A stretch of DNA of 25,574 bases from Leptolyngbyaceae cyanobacterium (GTDB lineage: Bacteria; Cyanobacteriota; Cyanobacteriia; Phormidesmidales; Phormidesmidaceae). Of this stretch, positions 1 to 21,500 are shown one piece after another. The notes under the pieces were generated by a model. The model had not been told where the DNA came from, did no database searches, and saw only the letters and a list, made by a program, of their open reading frames with translations. Numbering within the stretch: position 1 is the first letter of the stretch; every line of letters starts with the position of its first letter. Position numbers and translations under genes: made by a program. The stretch spans positions 1 through 25,574 of the forward strand of contig CBDHHL010000010.1 of assembly GCA_965263355.1 (NCBI GenBank). The letters run 5' to 3'.

Positions 1-486
1 TGTGAGCAGCTGCAACACGACGATCATTACACACAACAAGGACATAACACACACGGAAGAAGACACATATGAACACAACCCTTTCACGCTAGAAGCTATA
101 TACACATATACATATATACACATATTACATACACACGTTACATGACCTTTTACACAATAAAAGTCAGTCTTGACAACACGCTAAAACAGTCCACACGTTT
201 CATGCGTTATCGTATATATTCTTATTCATAAGTGCATTTATTCCGTGATATCTATCCGTCAACATAGGTAACTATATTCATAAGTATAAGTATATTAGGA
301 TACCAGCAAAGCGACGGTATCTACATATACGTGATTAGGTCTCTTGACCTATAGCTAGGATACAAGGCCTGATAAAGCGATATCTCCCTTTATCAGACCC
401 GACCTAAAGGCGCCGAGGTTACATAACGTCCTCACACGCCTTAAGTGATCATTACCCCTTCCTTAGGGAGATAGGGTAAGATCACA
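1..486 (+). repeat. 5' LTR
   Basis: Starts TGTGA and ends TCACA (482-486), followed by AA and the PBS. The 3' LTR is preceded by TT, so the unintegrated ends would read TTTGTGA...TCACAAA. Confidence 0.95.
156..198 (+). promoter_or_regulatory. LTR core promoter/poly(A) module: AATAAA, Inr TCAGTC, DPE-like element
   Basis: AATAAA 156-161; TCAGTC 164-169 fits the arthropod Inr TCAKTY (A166 = +1); G at +24 (189); ACACGT at +28..+33 (193-198) fits the DPE range DSWYVY. The 3' LTR AATAAA is at 15235-15240. Confidence 0.6.
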
Positions 487-488
487 AA

Positions 489-501
489 TGGTGGCAGCGG
501 T
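489..501 (+). promoter_or_regulatory. Primer binding site, tRNA-Leu type
   Basis: TGGTGGCAGCGGT, 2 nt after the LTR end, is complementary to the 3' end ...ACCGCUGCCA-CCA of metazoan tRNA-Leu(AAG/UAG) as recalled. Confidence 0.85.
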
Positions 502-1700
502 TTTAAACAACCCAGTGGTTTGTGATGGGTACCAAATTATTTTTTCATTTTCTGTTTTATGCTTTTAACATAGTCCTTGGACCCTACTTTTTAAATATGA
601 TTGTATTATATAAAGCTCATAAATATTGCTATAAGAGCTGTTTTACTGAACTAGGTTGAGTTAAAAGTGCCAAAAAATGAATTAAGCAAAAAAATTCAAT
701 TTCACTTTGAAGGCCAACAAAGCTGTTTAAAGTTAATATATTGGATTTTATCAATTATTTATGAAAAGTAATGATGTTAGAGAGTAAAAAAATTCAGATA
801 TCAGTGGATTGGTATTTTAAATTATTTTGAGTAATGTGGCCTCAACCTTGTACTTTTTAAAAATTGTAAAGGCAATTTTAAGCTATTCCTACTATTTTTA
901 CCTTAACTTTACGCAGCTGAGGCTTATATTTTTGAAATCTTGTATCAAGACAAAAGAGGTATGCATGTGCATAAAGTTTCAAGAAATTGCTTCAAATACA
1001 TTTTCAAAACGCGCCTATTTGTTGGCATTTTGGGGGCTTTACAGACCAAAATTGATATGTATGTATAGAAATGTGTTTAAAATTGAAAACGACCTACTAG
1101 GTTTGAATCAAAATCATGTAGTAGAACAATGCCTTAAAAAGACGAAAAACTTGAGATATTTGTTTTATCCAACTTTCCAACTTTTAGGAAAACAGTGGCT
1201 GGCAAACAAAAATCAAATTACCTTTTGAAGGTTGAAATTGATATTATTTGTAACAAAACATGTTTAAAATGTCAAATTATTGTATAATTTGGTATTTTTA
1301 GCTAAAATATTCCCAAATAGTTTAGATTTTAAATTGTCATTTTAAGCACTATGCCCTGCTCGTACAGACCATTATTTTCCCCTCAAATATTGCTCACGCT
1401 ACCACTTAACATTCCAATTTATTTTCCGTTAGCTACAAGCTAGCTTCTGTGAGAAAATACTGCATTTATAATGCATTTCCTCCCAACGGTCGCCCTATAT
1501 TTCTTAAATTAGGTGGTCATTCCTAGCTACTTCTTTTCATTTCCGCCATACTAAACTCCCCACGTATAGAGATCATCGGCATCCAACACGTGGTGTCAGC
1601 TAACGCAGGCAAACATCCGCTAGCATTACCCCACCATGTGCTTGTGTGCTGAGCCCCACTTTTGAGCCAGTGTGATGTAAAACAGGGCGCCAAATTTAAA

Positions 1701-2030
1701 CGTCTGGGACGGTGCTTTCTTCAAAGCGAAACTGACTGTGTGTCAACAGGGGAGACTGTGTGCCTCCTCTGGATCTCTTAGCCGGGCTAATTGATCAATC
1801 GGGTAGCAACAACCGAGATGCTCTGGGAGCATCCTATAGGACGCCAGTTTTCTCCTCCTATAGTAACAGCATGTGTGTACTGGGTGCACACCACACAATA
1901 GAGCACTGTGTGTGCATTGTGTGACAATTTGTATACACGGGGTGTATACGGTGCTTCCTCTCTGGGAGAGGAGCTAGTCGGGGACTAGCCATGCTCTGCG
2001 TGTGCACATTATACTGTACCGGGTACAGTG
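1701..2030 (+). other. Array of eight stem-loops with C(NGG)G triloops in the leader; candidate packaging signal
   Basis: Hairpins at 1701-1711, 1778-1790, 1817-1833, 1873-1891, 1931-1949, 1956-1972, 1973-1989 and 2013-2029. The structure is seen directly; the function is inferred. Confidence 0.75.
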
Positions 2031-2395
2031 CGCTGTGTGCGCGGCTGTGTGCCGAATGAGTGATGCTATGCATCTCCCTTGGGACCTCTAATGTCCCCAT
2101 CCTTGCTGGTCGCTGTCAGAAAACGGGTGCGCCCTGAAAAGTGGAACATGCCTATATGCATAGCTACAGCCCTCTTATCTAACACGGCCTACCTATGCAT
2201 CATAGTGCACGGTCTCTCTATACATAATGAGTAGTCACTGGCATCTTAACATTGCTTCTAACAATTAACATTCAGTCTCTCTGACCCCTCCAAACTGTTC
2301 ACACATCTTGACCACCCACCATGCAACTTCCAACCCTCCCTCTTGCTCTAATTATAGTAAGCGACCGTTAAGACATATGCTTCAGCACATTATAT

Positions 2396-2413
2396 TTAAC
2401 CCTTCTTTCTTAG
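2396..2413 (+). promoter_or_regulatory. Putative splice acceptor upstream of gag
   Basis: TTAAC CCTTCTTTCTTAG; no ATG between 2414 and the gag ATG at 2793. Confidence 0.55.
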
Positions 2414-2695
2414 GTCCCGCGCACTCTTTACACGCGCGTGCTTTTCCCTAAGAAAGTTATAAAAACCCTTCTACCACTTTCCTAACTCTTAATTGTTTCC
2501 ACACACTCACACTTCACATACTAACACCAGAATCGCTTTTCTGATTCGGTCCCATAAGCCTTGGCTTATACTCAACACGATCCAGCTATAATTCCACGAA
2601 GTGTCCCCGATACAAGGTCCAACCAGTAGCCGTCGCAAGCTGCCAGATCGCTACCAATATACGATCCGAGGTCTCTGACCTCCCAACTTTAACCT

Positions 2696-2786
2696 ACTGA
2701 TCCAGCACACTGCTAAAGAGTAGCGGTCTATCAGTATCCACTTCCCACTGATCCAGCACACTGCTAAAGAGTAGCGGTCTATCAGT
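2696..2786 (+). repeat. Perfect 40-bp direct repeat x2, each unit a stem-loop
   Basis: ACTGATCCAGCACACTGCTAAAGAGTAGCGGTCTATCAGT at 2696-2735 and 2747-2786, ending 6 nt before the gag ATG. Confidence 0.95.
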
Positions 2787-2792
2787 GCAAAG

Positions 2793-4037
2793 ATGAACGA
2801 CCACGAGAGAGCCATTTACGCCGATAAGCTTGCCCTCAAGCAAGCTTATGCGCCGTTCCCTGTACTGTCCACCACGGATCCCACCGACTTCAAACGTTGG
2901 AGGGATTCCTTCACAGAGATCGCTATCCTCAACCGCACCAGGGAGCAGGACGCTGTCCGTGCTGCCAGGAACAACCTAAAGGGTGCGGCTTTGCAAAGAG
3001 CCAAGCAGATTGTTCCAATCATCACAGACGATGACCCCTATACAGGCACTAAACTGTCGCAGTACATGTTTTGCCTGTCCAAGGCCTTCTTGGATGATGC
3101 TTCCCCTGCCAGGAACCTCAAACTGTTCCAAACGGCAGCACAAAAGCATGGCGAAGATTTCCACGACTTGGCTGTGAGGATCAAGACCTACTACATGGAG
3201 GCTTATCCCACAGCCAACCACGATAACATAGAGGCAAACACCCTCGTGATTGACCGCTATGTGGATGCCATTAAGGACCTCAGCATTCAGCAGTCCTTAC
3301 TCTCTGTACAGAAGCCAACCATATCAGCCACGTCCCAGATTGCATACCGGTTGCGTCAATCCGTCTTGCAATCTTACATCAGCTGTGCACCAGACAAGAT
3401 CCTCGAGCTCCAGCGGTTGAGACCGTTCCTCTTCATCTCTCCTGAGGAAATTTCAGGCTTGCCAGGCCACCAAACCTACCAACAGGACCAGTCAATCAAC
3501 CAAATGGCTCCCCCACCAGCACCCCCACAGGCGCCAACTGCAGCAACCCCTGTAGCACCAGCAAGTGAACCTATTCCACCGGCACAGCCTCAGCCATCAA
3601 CATCTTTCAATATAGATCCAACCCAGCTGCAGGCAGCCCTCGGCATTCAAGCTTTCATGAATGCTGCTACCAGATCCCCTCAGAAGTCAACCTCTAGAGG
3701 CCAGGGAAGACCAAAGCCGCGCCAACAGTCGCGCACCGACCTCTCAACAGTCACCTGCTACAACTGTGGCACCAAGGGGCATCTGGCTAGGAATTGCACG
3801 AGGCCCAAACCCAATTCCTCAGTCAGGCTGGTCCTCCCCAGACGGTCAGGCAACCAGTCAGGCAGAAACTCCACTGCTAGAAAGTCTTTCCATAACAAGC
3901 TCAGACAGAGGATCAACGCCCTCTCAGCCGAGGACTTCGGCAGATTCGCTGAATCCATCAGCAATCTGGAATACACAAGTGATCCAGAAGCCTCGGACAT
4001 CACTGACGAGGAGTCCGACGCAGAGCAGGGAAACTAG
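2793..4037 (+). CDS. gag: Gag (capsid-like region, Pro/Gln linker, single CCHC zinc knuckle)
   Basis: 414-aa ORF; CYNCGTKGHLARNC (CX2CX4HX4C) flanked by basic residues; located between the leader and pol. Confidence 0.93.
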   Translation: MNDHERAIYADKLALKQAYAPFPVLSTTDPTDFKRWRDSFTEIAILNRTREQDAVRAARNNLKGAALQRAKQIVPIITDDDPYTGTKLSQYMFCLSKAFLDDASPARNLKLFQTAAQKHGEDFHDLAVRIKTYYMEAYPTANHDNIEANTLVIDRYVDAIKDLSIQQSLLSVQKPTISATSQIAYRLRQSVLQSYISCAPDKILELQRLRPFLFISPEEISGLPGHQTYQQDQSINQMAPPPAPPQAPTAATPVAPASEPIPPAQPQPSTSFNIDPTQLQAALGIQAFMNAATRSPQKSTSRGQGRPKPRQQSRTDLSTVTCYNCGTKGHLARNCTRPKPNSSVRLVLPRRSGNQSGRNSTARKSFHNKLRQRINALSAEDFGRFAESISNLEYTSDPEASDITDEESDAEQGN

Positions 4038-7000
4038 ATCAGCCGGGTTCCACCCGGCTACCTTCACCCGCAATAACCCAGATCCAGGACACCAATACAC
4101 ACGAATCTGACTCTGGTGCAGAAGATGATTCAGATAATGCTGATGAACAAGACACTCCCAACAATGACACAGAGGAAGACCCAGAGGCTACGGCCTTCAT
4201 CTCTCACTTGCAACAACTTCCACATGCCATTAGGCATAAGGAAACTGATACGGAGGCCCGTAAGGCTAAGACCTTCAGGAAGTTCTTACGCTGTTCAGTG
4301 GACGGCCACACTGTCAACGGCCTCGTGGACGGTGGCAACACCTGGCACTCATGCATCTCCGAAAACTTCATGAAAGTTTTAGGATGGAAGAAGACAGACC
4401 TCCTCCCCACCAAGTATTGCAATGTAAATACGGCCAAGAAGGGATCCTCTATCAAGTCCCTCGGACAGTTGCCAAGGCCCTTGACCCTAACTCCTTCCAA
4501 CGGAGGCGCACCTATACAGTTCCAGCCCATGGTCATGAGATCGCTGTCCACTTCACTCAATATCTCAGGACCTTTGCTCGAACTTTGCGGTATCGATCAC
4601 CTCACCTCCAAGGGTGCCCTCAATTGGAGAGGCAAAAGGATTCCACTCCTCAACAGACCCAGTCTCAAGGACTCAGCAGCTATTTCCATCCTCGAGACAG
4701 CCACACTTCCACCAAAGTCCCTCAAGTTAGTCCTAGGAGTCTGCCCAGACACAATCAACTCAACCTTTGCATCTGGCACTGTAGTGGTTGAAGGAGACAA
4801 GTTATTAGCAGAGGAAACCAACCTAGCACCTGCCAGGAATGCCCTCTGCACAATTACACCAGAGGGCTCCGTCTATGTGCCCCTTATCAACCCACATCAC
4901 TACCCCATCACCATCAAGAACGGTACCTTCTATGGGCGAGCTCACCTCACCAAGACCACGCTGCTCAGCAATGGCATCCAGTCCATATCCATGGTCTCAG
5001 ACTCAGCTGATGACTCAGGTTATGACAGCGAGGACGAGGATACCCCACAGGACATCAAATATTTTGAGAACCTCCCGGAGGACCCAGAAACAAACCCCTC
5101 TGACCAATACACCAATTGGTCTGATGACCAGAAGAAACAATGGTTCCTGGACACATACAAGTTAGACACCAGGCCCTGCTTCAAAACTCAACACCAGCTG
5201 AACCTGGCACTAGACACCCTCACCAAACACTTTGACCTTTTCTCCAAGGACGGCTCCTATGGCTTCAGTGACCTCATCACTCACAGAATCATAACGGACG
5301 ACGTCCAGCCTGTCAAGGACAAACTGCGACCCTGTAATCCACTGCTACAAGACTCACTCAAGGCACAACTAGAGAAATGGGACAAACATGGAGTCATCGA
5401 GCCCTCATACTCCCCATGGGCGGCCAATGTTGTCCCAGTTAAGAAGAAAGACAACTCCATCCGCTGGTGTATTGACTACCGCAAACTCAATGCGGTTACT
5501 AAGAAGGACAGCTTCCCCATGCCGAGCGTCTCGGAAACATTCAACGCTTTGGCAGGATCCTGTCTCTTCTCCAGTGTAGATATGGAAGGAGCATTCCACT
5601 CTGTGGCAATTCACCCAGCTGACAGGGAGAAGACAGCCTTTATCACACCATTCGGAACATTCCAGATGAAGAAACTGGGCTTTGGAGTTAGCAATGGCCC
5701 TGCAACATACTGCAGGCTCATACAGATGGTTCTCAGAGGAATCCCCTCATCCATTGCTTTGGGATTCCTCGACGACGGAATTATTCATTCCAATGATGTC
5801 GAGACCCATTGCCAAAACCTTGACAGAGTCTTCACAGCATATGCCAATGCTGGCCTCAAGATCAACCCAAAGAAGTGCTCATTATTCATGGAAGAAATCA
5901 ACTACCTGGGCCATACAATCAACCAGCACGGCGTCAGACCACCCGCAGAATACATCGACCAGATCAAAACATGGCCAGTCCCTGACTCTCCAAAGAAGAT
6001 ACGGCGCTTTCTGGGAATGGTCGGCTACTACAGAAACCATATCCCCGATTACGCTCTTCTCTCAGCCCCATGGACAGACGCCTTGAAGAAAGACAACGTC
6101 AAAAAGAAGATCAAGCCCACACCTGAGATGATTGCCAACTTTGACAAACTCAAAGAGAAACTCACCACGGCACCCATACTGGGCTTCCCATACTTCCATG
6201 GACCAAAGGCGGGCACCTTCATCCTCGACACAGACTTTTCCTGCAAACAGATCAGCGGAATCCTCTCACAGATCCAGGATGGACAGGAAGTGGTCATAGC
6301 TTACGGCTCCAAAAAGCTAGACAGTGGTCAACAAAACTACCCATCCACAAAAGGGGAGCTGTTCGCTGGTAAACACTTCATGCAGAAATATGCATTCTAC
6401 CTCAAGTGGTGCCAACAGTTCACCTGGAGGACCGATAACTCAGCCCTCCAATGGCTGAACAGTATGCAAGATCCGCCCAGTATCATCTACCGGTGGCGAG
6501 AAGTACTCAGGGACTTCAACTTCAAGGTGGTTCACAGGGCAGGAACCAAGCACACCAATGCTGACTGCTTATCGCGAGTGGAATTCGATCAACCACCACC
6601 CAAGAAACCTAAGCTCCAGACAGAAGACCAAAACACCCTGCCGGAGGACCACAAAACCCTGCCGGAGGACCACAATTCCCTGCCGGAGGACCACAATTCC
6701 CTGCCGGAGGACGCCACAGTCGCAGCCCTAGCCAATGATGCGGATTCACTGTCTTACAAACCACAGGAACCCACATGGCAAGACCTCCTCCAGCCCACAG
6801 CTCCACCTCCTCCAAACCAACTCATGAAGCGCATCACTGACCTCATTCCAGTCAGTATGGAGGACGAACAGCAGAAATGCTCCACCCTCAGTATGGTTCG
6901 CAAATGGATTAGAGGCATTGACAAACCAGATAGGCTCATGCAGCGATGCTTAACCCCAAACCAGAAGAAGTACTTGGGCACCCTCTCCTCCCTCAAACTC

Positions 7001-8575
7001 ATACAGAGAGGAAAGGAACATGTATTGTGCTCCCTGTATCTCAAAGATGACGGTACTGTCCCACACTACCAAATCTGCCTCCCAGAACACCTCTGGGTAC
7101 CGGTCATCCAAGCAGCACACACCCTCAATGGTCACATGTCGCATCAAAGTACCCTGGACCGTCTCAAAACCCTGGTGCATTTTCCCAACATGTCTAAAAT
7201 GGTTAAGCAAGTTATCCACTCGTGCCAACCATGCATAACCAAACACAAGACAGCCAAGCCCCAGAAGCACACGCTCATTTCCAGTATGCCTCCCTATCCG
7301 TTCCACACCATCCACGTGGACTTTGTTGGCCCCATTTACAAGTCATCGCAGGGGAACCAATACATATTCACGGTCAAAGACGCTTTCTCACGATGGGTGG
7401 AAGCATTTCCCATGAAGGAAGCCACAGCCAACAACGCAGCCTTCTGCCTGGAAACACAAGTATTCCCACGTTTCGGTCTTCCCCAAAGGATACACTCAGA
7501 TTGTGGTTCACAATTCACAAGTAACTTCTGGAAGCAGTTAGGAGAACAACTTAATATCAAGATCTCCTACACCACTCCATACCACCCCCAATCAAACGGG
7601 ATGGTTGAACGCTTCCACAGGGACCTTGGGAAGATGCTGGCCGCCACCAACAAAGGCGGCTCAGAAGACTGGGAACAAGGCCTTCCAGCCGCACTGATGG
7701 CTCTCAGATCCGCAAAATCCAGAACCACGAATCTGAGCCCTTACTCAATATTGTTTGGCCGGGAAATGTCTCTGCCACTAGACCTGATTTTCGCACTCCC
7801 TGATAAGGATACTGAACACATCACAGATGCTAAGGCTAGAGCCTTCACAATCAGGAAGAGAATCAACCGGGCCTATGAGTGTGCCATTATACACGCCCAT
7901 AGAGCTGTAGAGAGGCAGAGACGTTCTTACCACCAGGACAAACAATATTTCACCGTTGGCCAAAAGGTGTGGCTTTACACTCCCAAGACATTCGACAGAG
8001 GCCCAACCAAGTTGAAAACTAGATGGTCCGGTCCCTGGACAGTCTGCGCACCACCGGGCAATGAGATTATGATCCGCATCTCACCCATGGCAGGTTGGCA
8101 GTTCAAACATTCCATAGTGGTCGCCATTGACAGACTCAAGCTGTACACAGGAGAGAACCCCATAGAGCCTGACCCCTCTTCTGACCTACAAATGACCGGT
8201 GATGAATTTGCAGAGGAACTAGACCCTGCGGAGTTCGAGTGGAACAACGACCACTCTGTCGACCTTGAGACCTACAAACACCTCATGCCAGTGCTCACAG
8301 GGCCTTCACCCTACCCAGATGACACATTAGACGACGGTGATCAAGCACGACCTGGCACACCCCCTCAACATAGTGATATTCAAACAAACATTAGTCAAAC
8401 CAATACTAGTCCAACACAGACACAAGTGCAGTGCCCAAATAAAGCCCCTACACCAATTCAAACAGTGCTGACCAGTGTTACATATCCCATAGTTTCTGTA
8501 CAACTCTTTCCACCAATCATCAGCAATATGAAATATAAGCCAAAGATCCCATCCGCTTCCAGCCGGAAGAATTAG
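4007..8575 (+). CDS. pol: Pol polyprotein (protease, RT, RNase H, integrase), expressed as a Gag-Pol fusion
   Basis: PR-like LVDGGN; RT SPWAANVVPVKKKD..RWCIDYRKLN..FLDD; RNase H ILDTDFS..ELFA..TDNSAL..NADCLSR; IN zinc finger H..H..CQPC, core HVDFVGP..HSDCGSQF..SNGMVERF, GPY/F-like RWSGPW. Frame extended upstream to the stop at 4004-4006. Confidence 0.97.
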   Translation, partial: RGVRRRAGKLDQPGSTRLPSPAITQIQDTNTHESDSGAEDDSDNADEQDTPNNDTEEDPEATAFISHLQQLPHAIRHKETDTEARKAKTFRKFLRCSVDGHTVNGLVDGGNTWHSCISENFMKVLGWKKTDLLPTKYCNVNTAKKGSSIKSLGQLPRPLTLTPSNGGAPIQFQPMVMRSLSTSLNISGPLLELCGIDHLTSKGALNWRGKRIPLLNRPSLKDSAAISILETATLPPKSLKLVLGVCPDTINSTFASGTVVVEGDKLLAEETNLAPARNALCTITPEGSVYVPLINPHHYPITIKNGTFYGRAHLTKTTLLSNGIQSISMVSDSADDSGYDSEDEDTPQDIKYFENLPEDPETNPSDQYTNWSDDQKKQWFLDTYKLDTRPCFKTQHQLNLALDTLTKHFDLFSKDGSYGFSDLITHRIITDDVQPVKDKLRPCNPLLQDSLKAQLEKWDKHGVIEPSYSPWAANVVPVKKKDNSIRWCIDYRKLNAVTKKDSFPMPSVSETFNALAGSCLFSSVDMEGAFHSVAIHPADREKTAFITPFGTFQMKKLGFGVSNGPATYCRLIQMVLRGIPSSIALGFLDDGIIHSNDVETHCQNLDRVFTAYANAGLKINPKKCSLFMEEINYLGHTINQHGVRPPAEYIDQIKTWPVPDSPKKIRRFLGMVGYYRNHIPDYALLSAPWTDALKKDNVKKKIKPTPEMIANFDKLKEKLTTAPILGFPYFHGPKAGTFILDTDFSCKQISGILSQIQDGQEVVIAYGSKKLDSGQQNYPSTKGELFAGKHFMQKYAFYLKWCQQFTWRTDNSALQWLNSMQDPPSIIYRWREVLRDFNFKVVHRAGTKHTNADCLSRVEFDQPPPKKPKLQTEDQNTLPEDHKTLPEDHNSLPEDHNSLPEDATVAALANDADSLSYKPQEPTWQDLLQPTAPPPPNQLMKRITDLIPVSMEDEQQKCSTLSMVRKWIRGIDKPDRLMQRCLTPNQKKYLGTLSSLKLIQRGKEHVLCSLYLKDDGTVPHYQICLPEHLWVPVIQAAHTLNGHMSHQSTLDRLKTLVHFPNMSKMVKQVIHSCQPCITKHKTAKPQKHTLISSMPPYPFHTIHVDFVGPIYKSSQGNQYIFTVKDAFSRWVEAFPMKEATANNAAFCLETQVFPRFGLPQRIHSDCGSQFTSNFWKQLGEQLNIKISYTTPYHPQSNGMVERFHRDLGKMLAATNKGGSEDWEQGLPAALMALRSAKSRTTNLSPYSILFGREMSLPLDLIFALPDKDTEHITDAKARAFTIRKRINRAYECAIIHAHRAVERQRRSYHQDKQYFTVGQKVWLYTPKTFDRGPTKLKTRWSGPWTVCAPPGNEIMIRISPMAGWQFKHSIVVAIDRLKLYTGENPIEPDPSSDLQMTGDEFAEELDPAEFEWNNDHSVDLETYKHLMPVLTGPSPYPDDTLDDGDQARPGTPPQHSDIQTNISQTNTSPTQTQVQCPNKAPTPIQTVLTSVTYPIVSVQLFPPIISNMKYKPKIPSASSRKN
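4028..4059 (+). promoter_or_regulatory. Programmed -1 ribosomal frameshift signal (gag-pol)
   Basis: Slippery G GGA AAC (4028-4034) in the gag frame directly before the gag TAG; 6-nt spacer; 8-bp stem AGCCGGGT-TCC-ACCCGGCT (4041-4059). The pol frame is -1 and open from 4007 with no ATG before the protease motif. Confidence 0.9.
6623..6712 (+). repeat. In-frame 21-bp tandem repeat (~4 copies) in the RNase H-integrase linker
   Basis: CCCTGCCGGAGGACCACAA(AA/TT) units encoding (N/K)(T/S)LPEDH. Confidence 0.92.
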
Positions 8576-8602
8576 CTAACCCTCTTACCATTTATATTCC
8601 AG
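8575..8602 (+). promoter_or_regulatory. Putative splice acceptor for ORF3
   Basis: GCTAAC branch point at the pol stop, pyrimidine tract, TTCCAG; the first downstream ATG is 8712 in strong context (ACCATGG). Confidence 0.65.
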
Positions 8603-8711
8603 TGTTTGTTTCTGCCTACCTCCACTGCCATCCACCACCACATACACAAGCCTTCGCTGATCGCTTTCCCCTGTTCCAATACACAGTACAGCAACCAACC
8701 AAATCACTACC

Positions 8712-11700
8712 ATGGAGTTCAACCCCAATGCCACCGACTTCATCTCCGGAGTCTCCAACGCTGAGCTGGTCAACAACACCATGTTGACCCAGTCCACCTC
8801 CGTAGCCCCTACCACCTTCGAGCTCACCGCCGTGAGCTCCCCCATGGAGATGACCAGGCACGGGGCTGTAGCCGCCATGACGGCTGCAGGCTCGATCCAG
8901 CCGGACCCAGCCTTCCCGTCTCTGCAGGAGACCGTGACCCGTCACGCCAGTGCGGCTTTCGCTGCAGCCCAGGGATCAATCCAGCCAGATCCCACATTCC
9001 CCAGCCTGGATGATAAGCGGAACCAGCTTATCGCCAACGCGGACCCCCTCCTCCGCCCAGCCCACATGAGGACCCCAACCAAACCACCTCAGCAGCACGT
9101 GGTTAAGACAGCCTCCCAACTGGTCAGGGAGCTGTACACCAGCCAGCCAAGGGACCCCATGTCAACCCCACCCCACAAAAAGAGGGCCTTCGAGTACCAG
9201 GAGTCCGACTTCCCCTCACTCCATGACCTGACTACCAAAGGAGTGATGGAGAGGCCGGGGTACTCGACCATGAATCTCCAGAGAGCCAGAGCCAGGGACA
9301 CCGAGTCCAACTCAACCCAGTCCCCTCCCACAACGGTCCCTCACTCGCCGGCCCCTTACACACCCAGGGCAGCCAACTCAAACCTGACCCCCTTAGGTAC
9401 ACCCAACAAGAGACATTTGGGCAGCAGGGACTCCAACATCTCAATCGAGCCCCTCCACCAACCAACCAGGCTATCCAGGCCTCCCAGCAAAGCCTGCTAA
9501 GGACCTCGGAGGACCTCGGAAGGACGGCCGACACAACCGTCTCCAAGCTCTCCAACCTTAGTGACCTCGTTGCCAAGCAAATCCCGGAGGCGCTTACGCA
9601 ACTCACCAACCTCAACCAGGAAATTGCCAGCAAGACTAGCCAGCTGCACGATCTGGAACTCTCTCTGGCCACAACCAGATCGCCCAGGGCCTCTCACTCA
9701 AGATCAGGCTCCTTCTCTAGACCATCGAGGTCAAGGAACCCCTCCACGAGCTCCAAGACCCGCTCGCCCTCGGCCTCCCCAGCTACCCGCAGCCGCAACA
9801 AGTCCCTCCAGGAGGACTTAGACAGGTTGAGATCTCGCATCGAGGAGAAGACAACCAAAATCGATGCTCTCAACAGCCAAGAACGATCTCTCCAAGACAG
9901 GCTATCCAAGTCCAAGAAGGCCAAACAAGAAGCAGACTCCGCTGTCAACGTGGCTCGCCGTACCAAAATTGACATCGACACAGAGGTTAAGTCACTCAAG
10001 AAAGACAAGGAAAACCTCCTTAAGACCATCTCAGAGCTTCGATGCAAGGAGGCAGCCATGGAGTCCCGCAAGAAGGACGACGATGATGCCGCCGCTGCAG
10101 CCCAGGCGGTCAAGAAGGAAACAGAGAGTCTGAACAACAAGATCGCAGACCTCAAAGCGACCCTTGCCAGACTTGGCGCCGACAAGCGAAACTTGGAAAC
10201 CACCTTGGCGGCGCATAACCTCGAGGTTACCACACAGAGGTCAAACCTCCATGACCTCAACCAGCAGCTATCCCAAGCTGCAGTCAACTTGCGGAGGACC
10301 AAAGAAGATCACATGGCCGCCTCCAATGAACTCAATGCCATTAACGCTGCCATTACCGAGGCCAGAATGGCATACGAACAAGAACAAGAAGCCAGACAAC
10401 AGCAGATGACCACTACCGATAACCAGATTGCGGAACTACAACAACACCTCGTGGCCCTCCAGCAGCAATATGACACCCAAAAACAGCAGATGACCGCGCA
10501 GATCGACAGCCTCCGAGCTGACACTGACAAGCTTCAGCGCCAAAACAAAGAAGCAGCTGAGTCCCTCAGCGACACACTGTCCTCCAACTCGGCCTCCCTA
10601 CAAAATTCGGCCATTAAACAATCCAACGAGCTCAACGCTGAGTTGGAGGCAGTCAGAAACAAGGTGGGTGCAGCCAAAATGCGCCTCACCCAAGTCAATA
10701 AGGAGCTCACACAGGCCACCACCGACCTCCAGAAAGTGCAAGCCGACAAAAACTCAACAGAGGATGACCTAAGTATCACCAAGTCCAGACTGGACTTAGA
10801 GTGCAAGAAACTACACGACGTCCTCCATGCTCTCGACAGCACCAAGACCAGCCACGAAAATTCCAAGACGGCCCTCAACAAGGCCACCGCAGAATTAGAC
10901 AAGGTCACCAGAGCAGTGCAGGACAAAACTAAGGATCACCAGAACTTGACAGCCCAGGTCTCCAAAGCCAGATCCACCCTGCAAGAGCTCTCGTCAGACA
11001 TCACTATGGCCCGCAAAAACCCCATAGTGCCAGCACCACTCTCCCCCATACCAATGGCACACCCCTCCATGATGATGGAGTTTGATGATGCCACTAACTC
11101 ATGGGTTAGGCCGCAAGGACTGCCAGTCACACCAGGCAAGTCCATCCCCACACAGCCTCACTCAAGCAGCAACACGGTGACTGTCAACCCCACCATAACC
11201 ATTCAGGCCCCAGCTGCAAGAGATGGCGAGGCCAATATTGCCCACCAGGCCGCAGCTTTCTTTGCACAAGCGGGCAAAGATCTAACCACATATGTGAATC
11301 ATGAAATTACGCAGTCCCAGGCCCTCCTAGCCAATCAGATCCAGACCATGAATGCCACTATAGCAGACATGAAGACAACGGCACTTAAGCACTTTGAGGT
11401 CCAGAAGGCGACTTATGCGCAACATTTCAACGACCTTGAGGCCATGCAGGTCCAATTCAATCAGCAGAAAGATACAGAAGCTGCAATCCAAATCGGCCAA
11501 CTCAAAGAGACCTTGACAGAAGAATTTAAAGCGACAAGACAAGTTGACTTATTGGAACCACAAATTGCCAAGCAGCAAACCCAGATCACCCTCCTACAGA
11601 ATGCCCTCAAAGAAATAGACCGACTCCTCAAGGCCCAACAGAGCAAGAAACCAGGCAAAGGCAGTAAAAAGACTCAGCACATCGCAGAGAAACAGCTCCA

Positions 11701-12118
11701 GATAGCCTCACAACTGGAGCTTCAGGACATTGACGCCAATGCCACTGAGGATGACCTAGCCCGAAACCAGACCAAGCTGTACAGGACCATCAATAACAAG
11801 ATCGAAGACCAACATGCCAGGGTCACGAGAGTAATGGAGGATCTGCGCAACGACATCCACGATCCTAACACTCTATTCTCCATCGACCCGAAGACAGTGG
11901 CTCACAAAAGGCCTAGGGATATCTCTACAGACACCACAATAGGCAAGCCTCCTGCCAAGATTACACCAACAGTGGACACTTCAAGAGTACCACAAGAGCA
12001 TCTTGCCTCCGTGCAAGAAACATTATCCAAGTTACACCCACAAGAACTACAGCCCGGCACCCAACTCCAGGTGCCTCACGACACCAACCACACGGAGCCC
12101 ATACCGAATGACCAATAG
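8712..12118 (+). CDS. ORF3: ~1135-aa accessory protein (disordered motif-rich N-terminus plus long coiled coil), interrupted by a -1 frameshift near 9455-9465
   Basis: ORF 8712-9500 overlaps the frame of 9827-12118, which is open from 9227. Codon style and heptad character switch frame at CAC CAA|ACC AAC CAG; adding one A joins the two. Confidence 0.8.
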
Positions 12119-12260
12119 CAAACATGATTAAATAAACACCCACACCAACCATTAAATATACACACAATACCCATGTCACACAATACACACATCACACTAA
12201 AACACTTGAGCATGCCACTTCCACTAATACAAACCAAATAACCAACCAAATTGTTGTCAC

Positions 12261-12299
12261 ACTTTCTCTCAGCGCCCTCTAACCACACTATTCTTACAG
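12261..12299 (+). promoter_or_regulatory. Putative splice acceptor(s) for env
   Basis: ACTTTCTCTCAG (AG 12271-72) and CTAAC...TTCTTACAG (AG 12298-99), both phase 0 with env; the env frame opens at 12228 and has no N-terminal ATG. Confidence 0.6.
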
Positions 12300-15002
12300 C
12301 TTTCCACTGCCATTGTGGTCGCACAAGCATTCACTGCTTATGATTGCGCCCACAATAACATCACGGCCACCATCATTGACCTGACAGAACCGGACCACTG
12401 CGCCACCCTTGACCCAGGCTCCTACTCAGAGACCAATGTCACAGTGTCTGTGATATCCACTGCCAACAGGCTCACGATACAAGCAGTCCAATGCCGGGTA
12501 CTCCTCACCCAGAAGGCAGTTTATTGCGGCTCAGGCCATGCCACTTATGGCACCAGATTCCTGGAGATTGAGAAGCCCATCCACATCTCACCCTCCCACT
12601 GCACTGACCAGGATGGCCCCATCATAGCCGACGGCCAACCTTACCCAGCCAATACCTTGGACCATGGAGACAAATACTCCACCTCCTATCCACGAGGCAA
12701 CCTCGACCACGACCACTACTGCGAGACCGAGTCCTTCACCTACAATGGTGTCTCCTTCTCCTCCCACTACGTGGAACAGGTCGCCAGAACAACCAGAGCC
12801 TCCATTACAGGGACCTACAATGCCGCCTCGGGCACAGTTACCTTTGGCAACGTCGCCGTCCCCTTCGCCCAGGGCTACCTGCAAGACGTTACCTTGGGCA
12901 CCATCACTTGGAACACGACCAATGTCCAGTGCAAATCCACCACGGACATCATCTACAAGGGCAACGCCACCAAACACTCCCCCACGGACACGACGACCGG
13001 AGGCATCACGATCATCACCATTGGCAACTCCAACACCAAACAATACGGAGCCTTCACCTTGAAGCAACCCATTCCCCTTTGCGGCAAAGCTTGCTTCGCC
13101 ACACAGCTGGAGGACTTCACTATCTGTTTCACGGATACACCCGAGACCCACTTCGGCACAGACCCACTCCCTACGCTCGACTTCCACAACACGGAAAGGT
13201 TGGCTGGAATCCATACCTTCCAGGTCAACCACGCCCTCACCACCAGGTCCAATTTCCAGGCCATCAATAAGGCCCTTTGCGAAGTCGATGCCAAGACCAT
13301 TGCCAACAAGCGGCAACACATCCTGGCCACGGATTCATCCGCCGCTGTCATGGACCTCTACGGCCCAGGTTACCAGGTCACCAGGGCTGGGGCAGTAGCA
13401 TATGTGGCCAAATGCGTACCCATTGAGGTTAACATCTATGAAGAAGCCCACAATTGCACCCAGGAGCTCCCTGTCATTCTACCCGCGGAGTACAAAGACA
13501 GGATCCGCTACATGGACCCAGTCACCAAGATAGTCACCAGCTATCCCACCTACACGGTCTGTTCAGAGATCATCAGACCCATGATCAAGATCGGCAACAC
13601 CTGGTACGAATATGGCCCCATCCGCAACTCCTCCAACACGTTCAGACCGGCAACCATCACCCCCACGGTGATTACCTCCACGGTACTCAAGCTCAAGCTG
13701 TTCCACTTCGAGATAATACTTGCTGCCTCCATCTACACGGAACAGGACAAGGTCGAGTACAACCTGTATATCACACAGATCTCAGCCAGAGCGCCCATAA
13801 CCTCCTCCATGGTCAACAGCAAGCTTGACTACGCAGACAACCCACAAGCGGCTCTGACCTTCGATGACACCTCCTTCAAGTCCCTCAAATCGGCCTTCCT
13901 CTTCCTTGTTAACCCCATAGCCTACATCCTGGGAGACGTCGGTCAATACTACATGTGGTTCATGTCCTTCCTGCTCTTCTTAGTCATGCTAAAAGTAGCA
14001 GCCGAAGGCATTTACCACATCCTCCTCCAGTACTCAACCGATGGCTGCGGTACCTGGTGCCTCCTGGCATGGCTCCGCACTTGCTGGAACGTCGCCAAGG
14101 CACCTGTAGCCATCAATGATGCCGCCGTAGAACGCTTGGTGGACGACCACCCGACACAGGACCACATCCAAATTGAGATGACAGACATGGCACTCCCATC
14201 CAGAGACATTGAACAGGAAAGAAGAGACTTTGATCCCAGGGAGTTTGCAAGCCACAGACCTCCCTCCTACACGACGGCAACTGCACCTCCATTGACAAAC
14301 CTCGTCAGGTACCCCTCCCTGACGTCCCTCACCTCGGCACGCGCCCTCCAAGCAGCAGTCGACCCCATGCGTGCTGCTGTCACCACGGCAGCCACAACCC
14401 TGAGACGACTGCGCTCAGCCTCGCGGGAAACACTGCGACGCAGAGCAAATTCAGATACCGCCTCCAGAGCATGGTCAGCCACCAGAGACCTCGCCACAAG
14501 AGCACGCAGTGCCTCGGCCAGCACGGCGCGCAGCCTTTCCCGGGCCGCTTCAAGAGCCGCTTCGGAAAGGTCCTTCAGGAATTCCACGGGCTCACTGAAC
14601 GCAATCAGACGGTCATTCCGCCAGGGCTCCACCAGGGCCCTGACACAACTCAATGGATCCCTCAGATCCCTAGCAGCGGCCTCCGATCAGACAATCAACA
14701 CGAGCAGGCGCGCAGCCAGACACGCCTTACACCAGATTGAGGACGATGCCCGCAGTACATTCTCCAAAGCGAGCTCCGCAGCCTCCCGCGCCTCCCGCAA
14801 GGCCCGGAAGGTTGCTTTCGCTGCAGCCAGACGAGTCAGAACATCATCCACCCTGGCTTACCGGCTAATCCAACATCCCCAGGACGCTAACGTCCTGACT
14901 CTCGCACCTGATGATGCACGTGCCCCGCTCCTGGACGCCGAACCACCTAGGAGACCCCCACGCCGCTCTAGACGTGATCGTCACGAGGACACTAGACACT
15001 AA
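12273..15002 (+). CDS. env: Env-like glycoprotein, chuvirus-G/herpesvirus-gB-like (class III fusion type); true start unresolved
   Basis: Signal-like RPLTTLFLQLSTAIVVAQA then FTAYDC; Cys pattern YDC..C..QC..CG..H..C; PGYQVTRAGAVAYVAKCVPIEV..NCTQELPV..YMDPVTKI..C..WY; SIYT; several N-x-S/T sequons; hydrophobic TM region ~13890-14090. Confidence 0.85.
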   Translation, partial: RPLTTLFLQLSTAIVVAQAFTAYDCAHNNITATIIDLTEPDHCATLDPGSYSETNVTVSVISTANRLTIQAVQCRVLLTQKAVYCGSGHATYGTRFLEIEKPIHISPSHCTDQDGPIIADGQPYPANTLDHGDKYSTSYPRGNLDHDHYCETESFTYNGVSFSSHYVEQVARTTRASITGTYNAASGTVTFGNVAVPFAQGYLQDVTLGTITWNTTNVQCKSTTDIIYKGNATKHSPTDTTTGGITIITIGNSNTKQYGAFTLKQPIPLCGKACFATQLEDFTICFTDTPETHFGTDPLPTLDFHNTERLAGIHTFQVNHALTTRSNFQAINKALCEVDAKTIANKRQHILATDSSAAVMDLYGPGYQVTRAGAVAYVAKCVPIEVNIYEEAHNCTQELPVILPAEYKDRIRYMDPVTKIVTSYPTYTVCSEIIRPMIKIGNTWYEYGPIRNSSNTFRPATITPTVITSTVLKLKLFHFEIILAASIYTEQDKVEYNLYITQISARAPITSSMVNSKLDYADNPQAALTFDDTSFKSLKSAFLFLVNPIAYILGDVGQYYMWFMSFLLFLVMLKVAAEGIYHILLQYSTDGCGTWCLLAWLRTCWNVAKAPVAINDAAVERLVDDHPTQDHIQIEMTDMALPSRDIEQERRDFDPREFASHRPPSYTTATAPPLTNLVRYPSLTSLTSARALQAAVDPMRAAVTTAATTLRRLRSASRETLRRRANSDTASRAWSATRDLATRARSASASTARSLSRAASRAASERSFRNSTGSLNAIRRSFRQGSTRALTQLNGSLRSLAAASDQTINTSRRAARHALHQIEDDARSTFSKASSAASRASRKARKVAFAAARRVRTSSTLAYRLIQHPQDANVLTLAPDDARAPLLDAEPPRRPPRRSRRDRHEDTRH

Positions 15003-15071
15003 CCCGTGCCTATTGCAGCCACTCTTGCCGCACCGCCGCCTACGACCTAAAGGCCTACACCGCGCTGCTCC

Positions 15072-15077
15072 GGAGGA
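15072..15077 (+). promoter_or_regulatory. Short polypurine tract candidate
   Basis: GGAGGA then TT then the 3' LTR TG; correct position but only 6 purines. Confidence 0.5.
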
Positions 15078-15079
15078 TT

Positions 15080-15554
15080 TGTGAGCAGCTGCAACACGAC
15101 GATCATTACACACAACAAGGACATAACACACACGGAAGAAGACACATATGAACACAACCCTTTCACGCTGGAAGCTATATACACATATACATATATACAC
15201 ATATTACATACACACGTTACATGACCTTTTACACAATAAAAGTCAGTCTTGACAACACGCTAAAACAGTTCACACGTTTCATGCGTTATCGTATATATTC
15301 TTATTCATAAGTGCATTTATTCCGTGATATCTATCCGTCAACATAGGTAACTATATTCATAAGTATAAGTATATTAGGATACCAGTAAAGCGATGGTATC
15401 TACATATACGTGATTAGGTCTCTTGACCTATAGCTAGGATACAAGGCCTGATAAAGCGATATCTCCCTTTATCAGACCCGACCTAAAGGCGCCGAGGTTA
15501 CATAACGTCCTCACACGCCTTAAGTGATCATTACCCCTTCCTTAGGGAGATAGG
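15080..15554 (+). repeat. 3' LTR, lacking the terminal 11 bp
   Basis: Matches 1-475 except four transitions (LTR positions 91, 191, 307, 315); GTAAGATCACA is absent. Confidence 0.95.
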
Positions 15555-18024
15555 CTTTAAGCTTGCCTATATGATGCCTCGGGTTTCCCTAAGGCAAGGT
15601 TATCAGGTTCATATAGGATTCAAATGATTTTAGGTTTCAAGTAGCTAATAATATTATCTCATATGAAACCTCTATTTGATAAGTTTTTTGTCTTTGGTGT
15701 CTAAATGAAACCTTTGGGCTCAAAACTAGTGATAAAGGGTTCCCATGTCTCGTCAGGCTACGTCCAAGAAAGCAATCACTTTTAAAATGTGTTACAAATG
15801 ACCTCTTTTCCGTCAAAAAATACGAAGAAGGAAACCATTTTTCAACGAATTTATGGTCGGACTAGAAATTGACGGCCTTTCCAGCCTTGGAGACAGAATG
15901 GGGGCAAACGACCAAAAAGCCTTTTTTTTCCTCCAAGGTCCTTGATTTTCAAGGGAAGCGGAATTGAAAGCAGGCGATATATTTTTCTACCATAAAAAAC
16001 TCGATTTCCCTGCGATTCGCCATGCTAGTGCAAGTAAGAAAAGGCAGCCGCCCTTCAATTTCCTGTTTCTCTATTTTCTCTTGCAGCACACAATTCGGAC
16101 CAAGAAGTATACTACACCTCGTTTAATGGGTGTTGCCATTTCGGCCCCGTGATAAATCAGTCTGTCTATCTTAGGGACATGGGCTACGTAGGGGGGCAAC
16201 GCCTGCGCGCAGCTCTAACTCGATAATTAACTGTGAAATAAGAGTTGCCTTTGGTGCCCCGAGCAAAAGAGAGGCATCAGATCTCGTATTTGAGTCCTGT
16301 TTTTGGACGCCCCGAATGAGGGCCAAAAATCATCAACTTGGGGGGTCTCGAAACCCAAAAGATCGGTCCCTGTGTGAACAATTGCATTATGGGAGAACCA
16401 ACTATAGAAACAAGGACTCTAATTTAGTCAAACTTGGCGCCTTTACCTTATTGGGAAAATCTAAAAACTATATAAAATGATTTATGTATTTAATTTGACT
16501 ACCAACCAAGAATTGTAATGTAACTATTGTAACAGGTAAGTTGGGGTTCACAGGTGGCCCGTGAGTTTGTTGTTATTTACTGGCTTGCTGAAATTGATAG
16601 GTCTCACTTTAACCAAGTCCACTGATAAAGTTGTTACATATCTTGAGCCATAACTTCTTCAGATAAACCTTTGTCCCTCTCTTTATGAGAGCAATAACTC
16701 AGGGTAACTAACGAAAGAAGAGGTGTTTGGCTTTTCATTTTGCACATACCCGATACATAAGCTGTATAGGTAATTAAACCATGCAGAATTCTTTGAACTA
16801 GACTTCCTTTTACATTTCCAACCAATGGAAAAGAAATGATCTGGGAAAGACAAAGGGAAAAAAACAAGCAAAGATGTCAATCAATTGAGGAAGAACTTTT
16901 GACATTATCTGAAACCAAAGATCTCACCCAAAACTGAAGAAGAGAAAAGTGAGGCCTTATCTGACAAAAATCACTTTCTCAAGGGAAAACGTGAAAAACT
17001 CCGATTTCTTCGTTAATGAAGTCCCCAGCAAGGTCATTATCACTAACTACATACCTTTGTAACATTGTTTAGCAGTAGTGAAACACCCTAAGACTCATTA
17101 AGGATTATTTATTATGTATGCCCAGAGGGCCGAACTATTTGCCAATTTGACCAAAAGGCGGCCAAACTTTGATTTTCCTCAGCAGATATGCCCCGCTTTT
17201 TCCGCCCTCAGCCCCAAATGGAGGAACACCCAGAAATAATGAGGAGCGCTCAAAAAATCTGGAGCCGTCAGTCAGTGAGACATGATTGGGTGGAAATACG
17301 AAAAAAATCGACGAGGGAAGAGAGGGTGGTAACACGTGCCATGACTTTTGTAATTGTTGGAAACATGCGGGTCTATTAAAATGAGTCAAAATTTTTCATC
17401 ACAAGTTAAAAATATAAACAATGTGTATTATAATTACCGGCGACCATACTTATAAAACACACATACTAGATGGCTTGCGTTTGACAATTTCTCTGTTATT
17501 AGAAAGCACATCATGAAGTACGTACGTCATGAAAATATGGCTTAAAGTGGGTCGAAAATTGAAATTCGAAACAAACCATAAAAGGGTCACGTGTGGAACT
17601 TGACAGCTTTGGAGATTTGAGTTTCGTCTCACGAAAGCTACAACAAAATTTTGACAAAGTGCTCCACATTCGTCGGAAATTGTTTTGGTGTACATCCACG
17701 AGGTCCATGAATTAACTCTCCGTGTCCTCAGGTGCGGTATGATATGCAGGCTCTCCGCGTCCCTATGGTAGTATGGTAGTCTCCGTGTTCCAGTAGTGAC
17801 TGCGTGGGCCCAGCCGATCCCAGGGGTCGTGCCCCTGCTCAAGGGCGTCACTTTGTTCTGCCAGACAGACGAAATGTAGTAAAAACAGAATAAAAGTACT
17901 TTCAATATGCTTTCCTATAATCAAGGCTTCCACCACATTAATGACCAAAGTGGCATCTTTATTATCTCTCAGCATAGGGTAATTAAGAGCTTAATTAAAT
18001 AGAGAGTAAACCAGGCTTACTCTA

Positions 18025-18405
18025 CACTGCTGTCCCATTATGCGCAATTTTAGGGCCATTCAGTGCCGTTTTAATTGCAAAAATATAATTGAATTATTTT
18101 TTTTGACATTTTTCCTAGGCTGTCAACAAAATTTATATCAATTTTACGGCTTTCACATATGGTTTTGAACAATGTTTATTATATAAAAGAAACATGTTAA
18201 CCCAACATCAGATCAATGACATTCTTATCTTCAAGAAAGTTATAAATATTTACGTAAAAATAATTGCGACGGATGGCCGGAAAAAAACGAATTAATTGTG
18301 ATTAATGACAAATGATCAACTCAATTCAGCGCGCTGCTTAATGACTTTTCAAATTCAATTTTAATTGCCCCAATTCATTTAATTACGACCAATGGGACAG
18401 CAGTG
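18025..18405. mobile_element. MITE, Tc1/mariner-type
   Basis: Perfect 15-bp TIR CACTGCTGTCCCATT/AATGGGACAGCAGTG flanked by TA on both sides; non-coding. Confidence 0.85.
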
Positions 18406-18589
18406 TACAAAACACGAATGAATTGAGGGTAATTATGGGCGGGCAACAAACGGGTTCGTACACTCATAAAATATGTTTAAGCGACAATTGTTCGAAAAAT
18501 CTGAAACAACTGGTACTGTAGATAAAGGGTTGAACCGATTAAACTTATTGTAGGCAAACTGACAGGATTTATCAATAACATTGCTTAGC

Positions 18590-21500
18590 ATGAAAGCAGT
18601 TGTGTTTCACGTTTTTACTTTTATCCAAATCATGGTATTAACTATTGCTCTGATGTATTATACTGGGAAATTTAAAGAAATTTCTAAACAGTCTTATTTT
18701 CACAATACCATAAAATCAGTGGTTCAGGAAAGCAAAACAAGGCTGAATCCGTTTCAGCGGAGTCAAAGAATCCAAGAATTACTTCAGTACAAAACCAGTG
18801 AAAGGAACATTGGGAAAACCTCACAGCTCGTAAAGAAAAATGTGATTTTCTTAGGTATCCTTTTATCCTTGAAAAATTAAAGAAACTATTGTTTCAACTT
18901 CCATTTTAATGGTGCAAAATGAATATCATTGGGGGAAAGTATACTTTTTACTACATTCAGCTTTTGATGACCTCAGACCTCAATTGAATTGCTACCATGA
19001 TAAACCTAATGAACAGTTCCACAAAATGCATACACCAAATTTTGACAGATTGGCAAGAAGAAGCATTGTCTTTGAAAAAGCATATAATCAGGTAGAGATA
19101 GTGGTAATTTGGCCCAAGGTTCCAAGTCCTATGATTTGTGTTAATTTTGATTGTTCCCAATGCTAGTAATGTTAACTTAAACCAATCCAAAATGGCTGAT
19201 AACTAATATAAAATATAATTTGTACCAATAGTGCCCAATATGCGCCCCAAGTAGAGTGTCAACATTAACCTCAAGGCACCCCGACAGCACAAGAGTTTAC
19301 CAGTTTGACAAATACTTCAGGTACACGCCGCCTTTACTATAATAAAGTAATGTACTGTAGGATGTCATGAGTTAAAACAACTTCTCTCTGTCAAAATTCT
19401 TAGATGCATAATTGAAGTATACCTTGTACAATTTTAGAGAATTCATGAACCCCAATGTGGTCACAATTCCTCAATATTTTAAAGAGAATGGGTACAATTC
19501 TATAAATGTTGGAAAAATCTACCATGATAGCAATGCAAGCTCCAGGTATGTTTTAGGGTTTCAAAAAAAAAGTAAAATAATTATTTATCTGTCATGAGAA
19601 GGCTTGGTGATCCACCGTCATGGTCAAAGAAACCTTTAAGAGGTATCCGAGGAGAATCATACCTGCAGCCCAGTCACAAAGTTAAGGTACGGGTACGTAA
19701 ACGTACCATATTTCCTCATCATATCATTATTTCGTAACATTTTAATTATAATTTTGTGAAGTCTGCTAATTACACTTTTGACGCAATAAATCTATTTTTG
19801 GGGGAAAAATGGCCACGTGAATTCAGTTTAAGCGATGTTTTTGTTTATGCATTCATCGAAATTACACATTCATTCTGCCATCCAACACAATTGTTGGTGC
19901 ATTTATTTTTGTTATATATAGTAACATTGTGATGAATTGATTTTTTTCATTATTTGAAACATCCGTTCCTATATTGCAATGAGTGGGGCTATTGTATTCT
20001 AACTAAAACATTTATGTATGATGTAGATAAATCCTACAGGTCGGAAACTCCTATGGAGGTCCTTCATCCAGAAGCCAAATGAAGAATGGGACCAAGTACA
20101 GAGCTGGGATGAAACCATTGCTACACAAGTAATGAAATAAAATATTTACATTTCCTTGGATAATTTAGAAAATTTGGATCATTCAACAAGGCAATCAATG
20201 TTCTCAGGGAAATGGTTGACAATTATGAAGATGAGAATAAGAACTTTTTCCTAGGGCTAGGATTTAGAGCGCCCCATATTCCATACCGTGCTGCTCAGAA
20301 ATATTTTGACATGTATCCTTTCGAAAGTAAGTTTAAGGGTATTAACTGCTTCTTCAGAAAAGAACATACACTAATGGGCTGTATTCTCGAAATCCAAGAT
20401 TTTTATTCGCTGCTCTGGATAAAGGTTTGAAAAGTGTAAATTGTTCCAATCATCCAAAATTTATCCAAAAAGTGCGAAAAAGCTGTTTTTTATCCAAGGA
20501 AAAAAATCCCACCAGTAATAGCAGTATATGTAATAAAAAATACAAAAATTCAAACCTGCTTTTTGAATTGAATAATGTGTGGATAAAAAGTAACTTTTTA
20601 CTCATGAAAGATAAACTCCTACTTAATAAAGGCAAAAATTATTCAAAAGTGTAAATTGATCCGTTGATTCCCACTAGTGTAATGCTAACAATAACGAAGA
20701 CTGTTAAATTGAAGCTCTCCACTAAGATCATTACGATTTCAGATGTACCAGCCCCTGCAAGAAACTTTGCAGCCTCTGATTTTCCTGAAATTGCATGGAA
20801 TCAATTATCTGACTTCAAGAAAAGTCAAGAGTGGCAGGATAATTTGTTGACCAATCCAAAGGCTTCACAATTCAACCAATCAGCTTCAAATACATTTTAC
20901 AGGAAAATGAGACAAGGTGCTCAGTAATTTCCAAATGTGTACTAACTCATAGTAAACTGGCGTCCCATTCAGCGCAATTTTAGTGTCATTCCGTGCCGTG
21001 CTTACTAACATTTCATTGTAGATTTAATTGCAATTAATGAAATTAATTCGTTGAGTTCAATTTTAGGGCTATAAATCTTGCCGGAGACCAAACTTCGTGA
21101 GGAAAAGGGGGTTATGCTAAGGGCAACTATGATTGCCTCAAAATTAGTCATATCTGACTGTGCCTCTGACCCACGCTATAAGCGTTAAAATAGAAACAGC
21201 AATATGCAAGAACAACGGCTATAAATTAAATCGCATAATATTATATCATGAGTTAGAGTCATGAGTCATTTCTGGGCAATGTTCATGAAACAAAAATTAA
21301 AAAATAAACATATTTAGTGGGTGGGGGTAGTCGTAAAAATGAAATTTTGCAAACAAAATTAATAAGAAAAAGACTACATTCAGCGCGGGGCTCAATGACT
21401 TTTAAAATGAATTTGAAATTTCAGCGCATTTGGTGCCCAATTAATTTAATTACGCTGAATGGGACACCAGTGTATGTTAGATCAAATAGCAAACTGTTTC

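Follow-up and report, generated by a model that had tools for sequence, protein, structure and literature searches.

RACK1 has a pocket for the FPxL motif, recognised no earlier than 2025 as a hub for which SERBP1 vies with factors of stress and quality control. FPxL is common to ZAK, SERBP1, and LARP4, in which it addresses blades 2–3 of RACK1 (PMC12823453), and the motif of RNF10 is FPxF (bioRxiv 10.64898/2026.08.26.747346). The SERBP1–RACK1 contacts involve F404, L407, and V398, the last being located six residues upstream of the Phe (PMC12823453), and the main RACK1 site of LARP4 is CR2 rather than FPPL (PMC11565960). FPxL is a low-information motif, and its putative copies were reported in 4.5–6% of ribosome-fraction proteins (bioRxiv 10.64898/2026.08.26.747346).

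For the PABP-binding motif PAM2, the refined definition gives a hydrophobic residue at position 3 (Phe being the rarer choice), N/S at 4, P/V at 5, and invariant A7 and F10 (PMC2854688), and the portion past position 10 is described as variable (PMC7356810). Working PAM2 motifs were reported in RNA-virus proteins (henipavirus P/V, HCoV-229E N, and Berne virus N), one of them at residues 2–17 (PMC10132805). Already described are viral PAM2 mimics, a LINE-1 contact with PABPC1, errantiviruses with a gB-type env, and additional ORFs lying between pol and env (PMC5408684, PMC6431247). In the passages and listings of the RACK1–FPxL literature that we covered, no viral or retroelement carrier was found.

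Here we analysed a window of 25,574 nucleotides, of which positions 1–15554 are occupied by a single Ty3/gypsy LTR element with the genes gag, pol, ORF3, and env (coordinates of its features refer to the + strand). The preliminary description of this DNA had proposed that ORF3 encodes a retroelement accessory protein bridging PABP and ribosomes by means of an N-terminal PAM2 and three FPSL motifs. The genetic part of this proposal is upheld: ORF3, located between pol and a gB-type env, is an accessory gene and the fourth one of a Ty3/gypsy LTR element with env.

This element is young, env-carrying, and recently active, and its LTRs, gag, pol with the RT–RNase H–integrase order, and fusion glycoprotein gene are those of the errantivirus type. 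The 5' LTR (1–475, possibly extending to ~486 and ending with CA) matches the 3' LTR (15080–15554) with 4 mismatches in 475 bases. The 3' LTR match ends at 15554, ~11 bases short of the CA found at the 5' end ahead of the primer-binding-like site, and the end of this LTR seems to be truncated or interrupted. The primer-binding-site-like sequence (489–501), recognised by its sequence, is presumably that for tRNA-Leu; the tRNA and Rfam searches gave 0 matches. It is directly followed by ~1 kb of AT-rich DNA (510–1500, GC 0.34–0.41) which differs from the rest of the element and is possibly a nested insertion.

The gag gene (2793–4037) encodes 414 aa with a CCHC knuckle (Pfam zf-CCHC, 8.3e-07) and is immediately preceded by a 43-base duplication (2693–2786). 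The pol frame (4007–8575) shows domain matches for RT, RNase H, and integrase in the Ty3/gypsy order without interruption, its closest relative among solved structures being Ty3 RT (3.6e-64); it harbours four 21-base repeats 3' of RNase H (6616–6720). The start of pol lies within gag, in the −1 frame relative to it, and pol is likely reached through a −1 frameshift at a signal composed of the heptamer GGGAAAC followed, after 6 bases, by a hairpin of 8 bp (4028–4059; z −2.92 for 4038–4110).

The env frame (12228–15002) encodes a class III (gB/chuvirus-like) fusion protein (Pfam Monjiviricetes_fusion PF24664, 3.7e-50 over 576 residues) and starts without an in-frame ATG. In the leader, a short hydrophobic frame starting with ATG (2321–2362) runs up to a GTAAGC donor (2357), and an acceptor rich in pyrimidines that ends at 12299 (window 12273–12299) is in phase with the env frame. 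Lacking its own ATG, env is probably translated from spliced RNA, the leader frame supplying the start of the signal peptide. The cytoplasmic tail of env comprises ~280 residues (window 14170–15002), has a very high content of Arg, Ser, and Ala, and carries near 14260 a PPSY (PPxY-type) sequence, a putative late-domain motif. In the flank, related inverted-repeat (MITE-like) elements occur at 18023–18407, 20953–21474, and 21669–21839. An exon-like piece at 21919–22030 has a weak match to the sulfatase family (SGSH_C, E 0.0018, under the cut-off), so the element appears to be located near or within a host gene.

The start of ORF3 is where the preliminary description had placed it: the ORF covers 8712–9500 (+), contains 262 aa, and begins with MEFNPNATDFIS. 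It is only the head of a 1135-aa protein, and its residues past ~9459 are out of frame. Comparison with the record P0001 locates a frame break in the window copy at 9455–9462, after which the remainder (9463–12118) encodes a coiled-coil rod, a linker, and a C-terminal region, helical and conserved, that includes a KRP motif. The intact 1135-aa protein is present in 3 of the 10 members of its cluster (P0001, P0003, and P0007). In contigs from all three sequencing runs (one study, possibly the source of the window), the depth of those differing from the window at the break equals the total depth. The break is therefore either private to the window copy or an assembly error, and programmed frameshifting was rejected, since three records are single-framed and the run contigs have no break. 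Five other cluster members (P0004, P0005, P0008, P0009, and P0011) are fragments as well, broken at differing places, as decay of the copies or errors in long reads would produce.

Away from the break, 30 of the 34 classified ORF3 variants, taken from the 40 listed among 173 differences in the run contigs, are silent (13/16 in the head and 17/18 in the rod). These data indicate that ORF3 is under purifying selection and is maintained as a protein. Several diverged contigs start matching only at ~8706–8713, which supports the ORF3 ATG as the start. A contig with 103 differences over 8713–9304 is also present. An acceptor-like sequence precedes this ATG (window 8655–8714, with CAG ending at 8686 and 8691), and the start context is strong.

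The predicted architecture of the 1135-aa protein includes a variable head, a long coiled coil, and a conserved helical C-terminus. The head is Pro-rich and has no heptad signal; FoldIndex is positive for residues 1–100 (0.12 and 0.20), giving no sign of disorder there, and negative for residues 101–250. The proline-free stretch 358–770 shows heptad periodicity in most 50-residue windows, and a coiled-coil rod of ~500 residues is predicted. No transmembrane stretch was detected in ORF3 (maximal 19-residue hydropathy 0.73), and the product is predicted to be soluble. The C-terminal 366 residues were modelled mostly as long helices, with low confidence (pLDDT 54, pTM 0.30), and this model had no match in PDB at E 0.001. 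Pfam gave only sub-threshold coiled-coil matches on ORF3; the atlas searches gave nothing for the head and, for the tail, a “paramyosin” lead (0.75) under the chance level, and the duplicated repeat of the head had no match among solved structures.

Outside the cluster of P0001, homologues are represented by P0002 (86–88% identity), P0012 (66–68%), the fragment P0013, and P0014 (25%); P0002, P0012, and P0014 are assumed to be retroelement-derived. No related loci were recovered from viral or metagenome contigs. A captured host gene was also considered for ORF3 and dropped, as a search of 1.84 billion representatives yielded no homologue of cellular origin. P0012 and P0013 have no head and are therefore uninformative on the motifs. 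P0014 (1156 aa, E 5e-34) has in common with ORF3 the rod and the KRP-containing C-terminal region, the latter being 31–33% identical, while its head is unalignable to that of ORF3 (252 of 1000 shuffles score equally well), and P0014 has no FPxL/F and no PAM2 core. An alignment of the third FPSL with APTL of P0014 was dropped, since no head alignment was backed by the shuffle test. These results indicate that the FPSL and PAM2-like motifs are lineage-specific additions rather than the core function of the family, and that the conserved function resides outside them.

The three FPSL are located exactly where they had been reported (8913–8924, 8997–9008, and 9210–9221), and the window has no others in any of its six frames (51,144 codons). 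The 28-aa duplication (8853–9020) is real too: residues 48–75 (8853–8936) and 76–103 (8937–9020) form tandem copies identical at 16/28 residues and 46/84 bases. Each of them contains a block GSIQPDPxFPSL (8889–8924 and 8973–9008), and the third motif is DFPSL (9207–9221). Within the block 11 of 12 residues are the same, and seven of their codons differ silently (including one Ser encoded by TCT or AGC), with pS 0.83 and pN 0.11, compared to pS 0.67 and pN 0.53 outside. Residue identity is 11/12 in the block versus 5/16 outside (Fisher p 0.002, block edges set by eye). This block is therefore a selected protein motif, constrained at the protein level: two FPSL arose by an old duplication, and their core appears to have been retained by selection. 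All three FPSL are also retained in P0002, which is weak evidence taken alone (chance of 0.35 for none of the 16 differences falling in those 12 residues). The head has eight Phe, three of them within FPSL. At least two FPxL, the duplicate being counted once, appear in 0.12% of shuffled heads and in 0.39% of shuffles of the whole 1135-aa protein, for a motif picked after being seen; a lone FPxL is common in shuffles (5–9%), and gag also carries one (FPVL).

The PAM2-like 12-mer (residues 1–12, 8712–8747) fits five of the six defined positions, with the hydrophobic F3, N4, P5, and the invariant A7 and F10, while it has D9 in place of the preferred E and S12 in place of the usual P. The Pfam PAM2 model did not match ORF3. 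The core [LF]NxxAxx[FW] occurs in 0.3% of head shuffles and 1.1% of whole-protein shuffles, the motif having been chosen after it was seen. The stretch is kept in all seven near-identical records that have the N-terminus. However, P0002, with 16 differences over 198 residues, carries A7T and F10L, changing both invariant positions (p 0.033 for two differences in four anchors); this version should be unable to bind as PAM2, and P0002 is a single record, perhaps of a dead copy. The conservation check has thus divided the earlier claim: FPSL is kept in P0002, while PAM2 anchors are lost there and both motifs are absent from P0014. For a working PAM2 in ORF3 the balance tips somewhat to the negative side, and the PAM2-like stretch is the weaker half of that claim, the FPSL repeats being the stronger one.

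With respect to RACK1, the F-P-x-L/F core of the RACK1-interacting motif (RIM) is present three times in ORF3, and both repeats have Ile six places before the Phe, where SERBP1 has V398, while P396 of SERBP1 is replaced by Gly. The motif identities asserted previously fit the published definitions; the parallel with LARP4 is less exact, as LARP4 docks mainly via CR2, and its pattern for the second RACK1 site (S[YFW]Ax) has no match in ORF3. In 23 eukaryote sequences the pocket residues Q76, F77, L89, F113, Q119, N133, and K139 of RACK1 are invariant or nearly so, and the site should therefore exist in the host.

We tentatively prefer, at slightly less than an even chance, to regard ORF3 as a multivalent RACK1-docking accessory protein that would tune translation or ribosome quality control on the element RNA. 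The three FPSL of the head would act as RIMs, and the rod would oligomerise, displaying several of them at once. The protein would then dock on the 40S subunit at the pocket contested by SERBP1, ZAK, LARP4, and RNF10, which would favour translation of the element RNA or shield ribosomes paused at the gag–pol frameshift from quality control. The PAM2-like stretch may contribute PABP binding in this subfamily only. A more ambitious version, in which ORF3 would be a LARP4/SERBP1 mimic and a true PABP–ribosome bridge, is unlikely as a whole: PAM2 of the oligomeric coiled-coil protein would hold PABP while three FPxL fill the RACK1 pocket. The protein would thereby tie polyadenylated element RNA to ribosomes and compete with the collision sensors ZAK and RNF10 at the element's own frameshift pause. 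It would also imply that PAM2 was gained or lost between sister subfamilies by substitution of precisely those two residues that are invariant in it. Of the two halves of this version, the PABP bridge is the less secure.

The extension of selection over the entire 12-mer GSIQPDPxFPSL, beyond the FPxL core, would also suit a linear motif for another partner of the host or element, for example, of the Atg8/LC3 family via F-x-x-L, or one not yet recognised. We consider this somewhat unlikely, since the third site has only FPSL in common with the repeats, which points to FPSL as the core. In the LC3 variant, F-x-x-L with acidic residues upstream agrees with the LIR core, but Pro within this core is usually inhibitory (PMC7615515), and all three FPSL have Pro at +1, whereas the LIR/AIM pattern ([WFY]xx[LIV]) has a core without Pro or Gly. 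Chance matches within a Pro/Ser-rich linker would account for the absence of the motifs from P0014, the changed PAM2 anchors of P0002, and the post hoc choice of motifs. As a general explanation chance is very unlikely, given shuffle rates of only 0.1–0.4%, and it is not a fair reading for the duplicated block, which is saturated at silent sites yet conserved in protein. For the PAM2-like stretch taken alone it is a fair one, with a probability near one half.

The regions conserved in P0014, the rod and the KRP-containing C-terminus, could instead indicate that ORF3 serves chiefly as a helper in the nucleus or in structure (export of genomic RNA, or a particle scaffold), its head motifs being incidental or secondary. 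ORF3 has 14 SP/TP sites and several NLS-like stretches, and one of its KKR/KRP motifs, retained in P0012 and P0014, gives a hint of a nuclear role; a precedent is CERV of Cer1, a spliced accessory protein with an NLS and coiled coils required for RNA export (PMC10309623). Nevertheless, this explanation is quite unlikely; it leaves the selected FPSL repeats unexplained, and no sequence or fold link from ORF3 to known proteins was found. A nuclear or structural role and RACK1 docking are compatible, and both can be true.

In sum, an orphan retroelement protein carries a real, selected motif repeat, for which a ribosome-docking role is plausible. If this role is true, ORF3 may help the element to steer translation of its own RNA, and our literature search found no earlier case of a mobile element mimicking the FPxL motif for RACK1. 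A retroelement that evolved and duplicated FPxL would suggest that mobile elements and viruses may manipulate ribosome quality control through the RACK1 pocket, and FPxL would become a motif worth scanning for in viral proteomes.

Among the described systems, the closest in gene content are errantiviruses with HSV gB-type env (PMC13524379), which have gypsy gag–pol, gB-type env, and LTRs as in the present element, while the latter has in addition a 3.4-kb fourth gene between pol and env. The survey of these elements allowed a gap of up to 1000 nt or a 3000 nt extension (PMC13524379) and would therefore tend to miss elements with such a gene. Independently of the motif reading, the gag–pol–accessory–env layout with an orphan 1135-aa protein is of interest as one probably filtered out of that survey. 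Accessory ORFs downstream of pol are represented by CERV of Cer1 (PMC10309623), with coiled coils and an NLS-like motif like ORF3, and by the extra ORFs of bdelloids, some of coiled-coil types (PMC5408684); in contrast to them, ORF3 coexists with a separate env, and no homology was found.

The proposed ORF3–PABP contact may be compared to the PIE element of LINE-1 ORF2p, a retrotransposon protein engaging PABPC1, although that contact is made with RRM1 rather than MLLE and belongs to an RT protein, not to an accessory gene (PMC7617806). Viral PAM2 mimics resemble ORF3 in their virus-like carrier and, in one case, in the extreme N-terminal location of the motif; they are demonstrated binders (PMC10132805), whereas ORF3 carries a candidate motif that has Ser at position 12 and is missing from its 88% relative. 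With the RIM of ZAK, SERBP1, LARP4 CR1, and RNF10 (PMC12823453; bioRxiv 10.64898/2026.08.26.747346; PMC11565960) ORF3 shares the FPxL core and, with SERBP1, the hydrophobic residue six before the Phe, V398 or Ile (PMC12823453). It differs from these proteins by having three copies on a retroelement protein without the RACK1-interacting helix pattern. Although ORF3 has a long coiled coil, no homology to LARP4/LARP4B, and neither a La module, nor another RNA-binding domain that could be found, nor CR2, it likewise pairs in one chain an N-terminal PAM2-type motif with FPxL, as LARP4/LARP4B do with PAM2w near the N-terminus, FPPL, and CR2.
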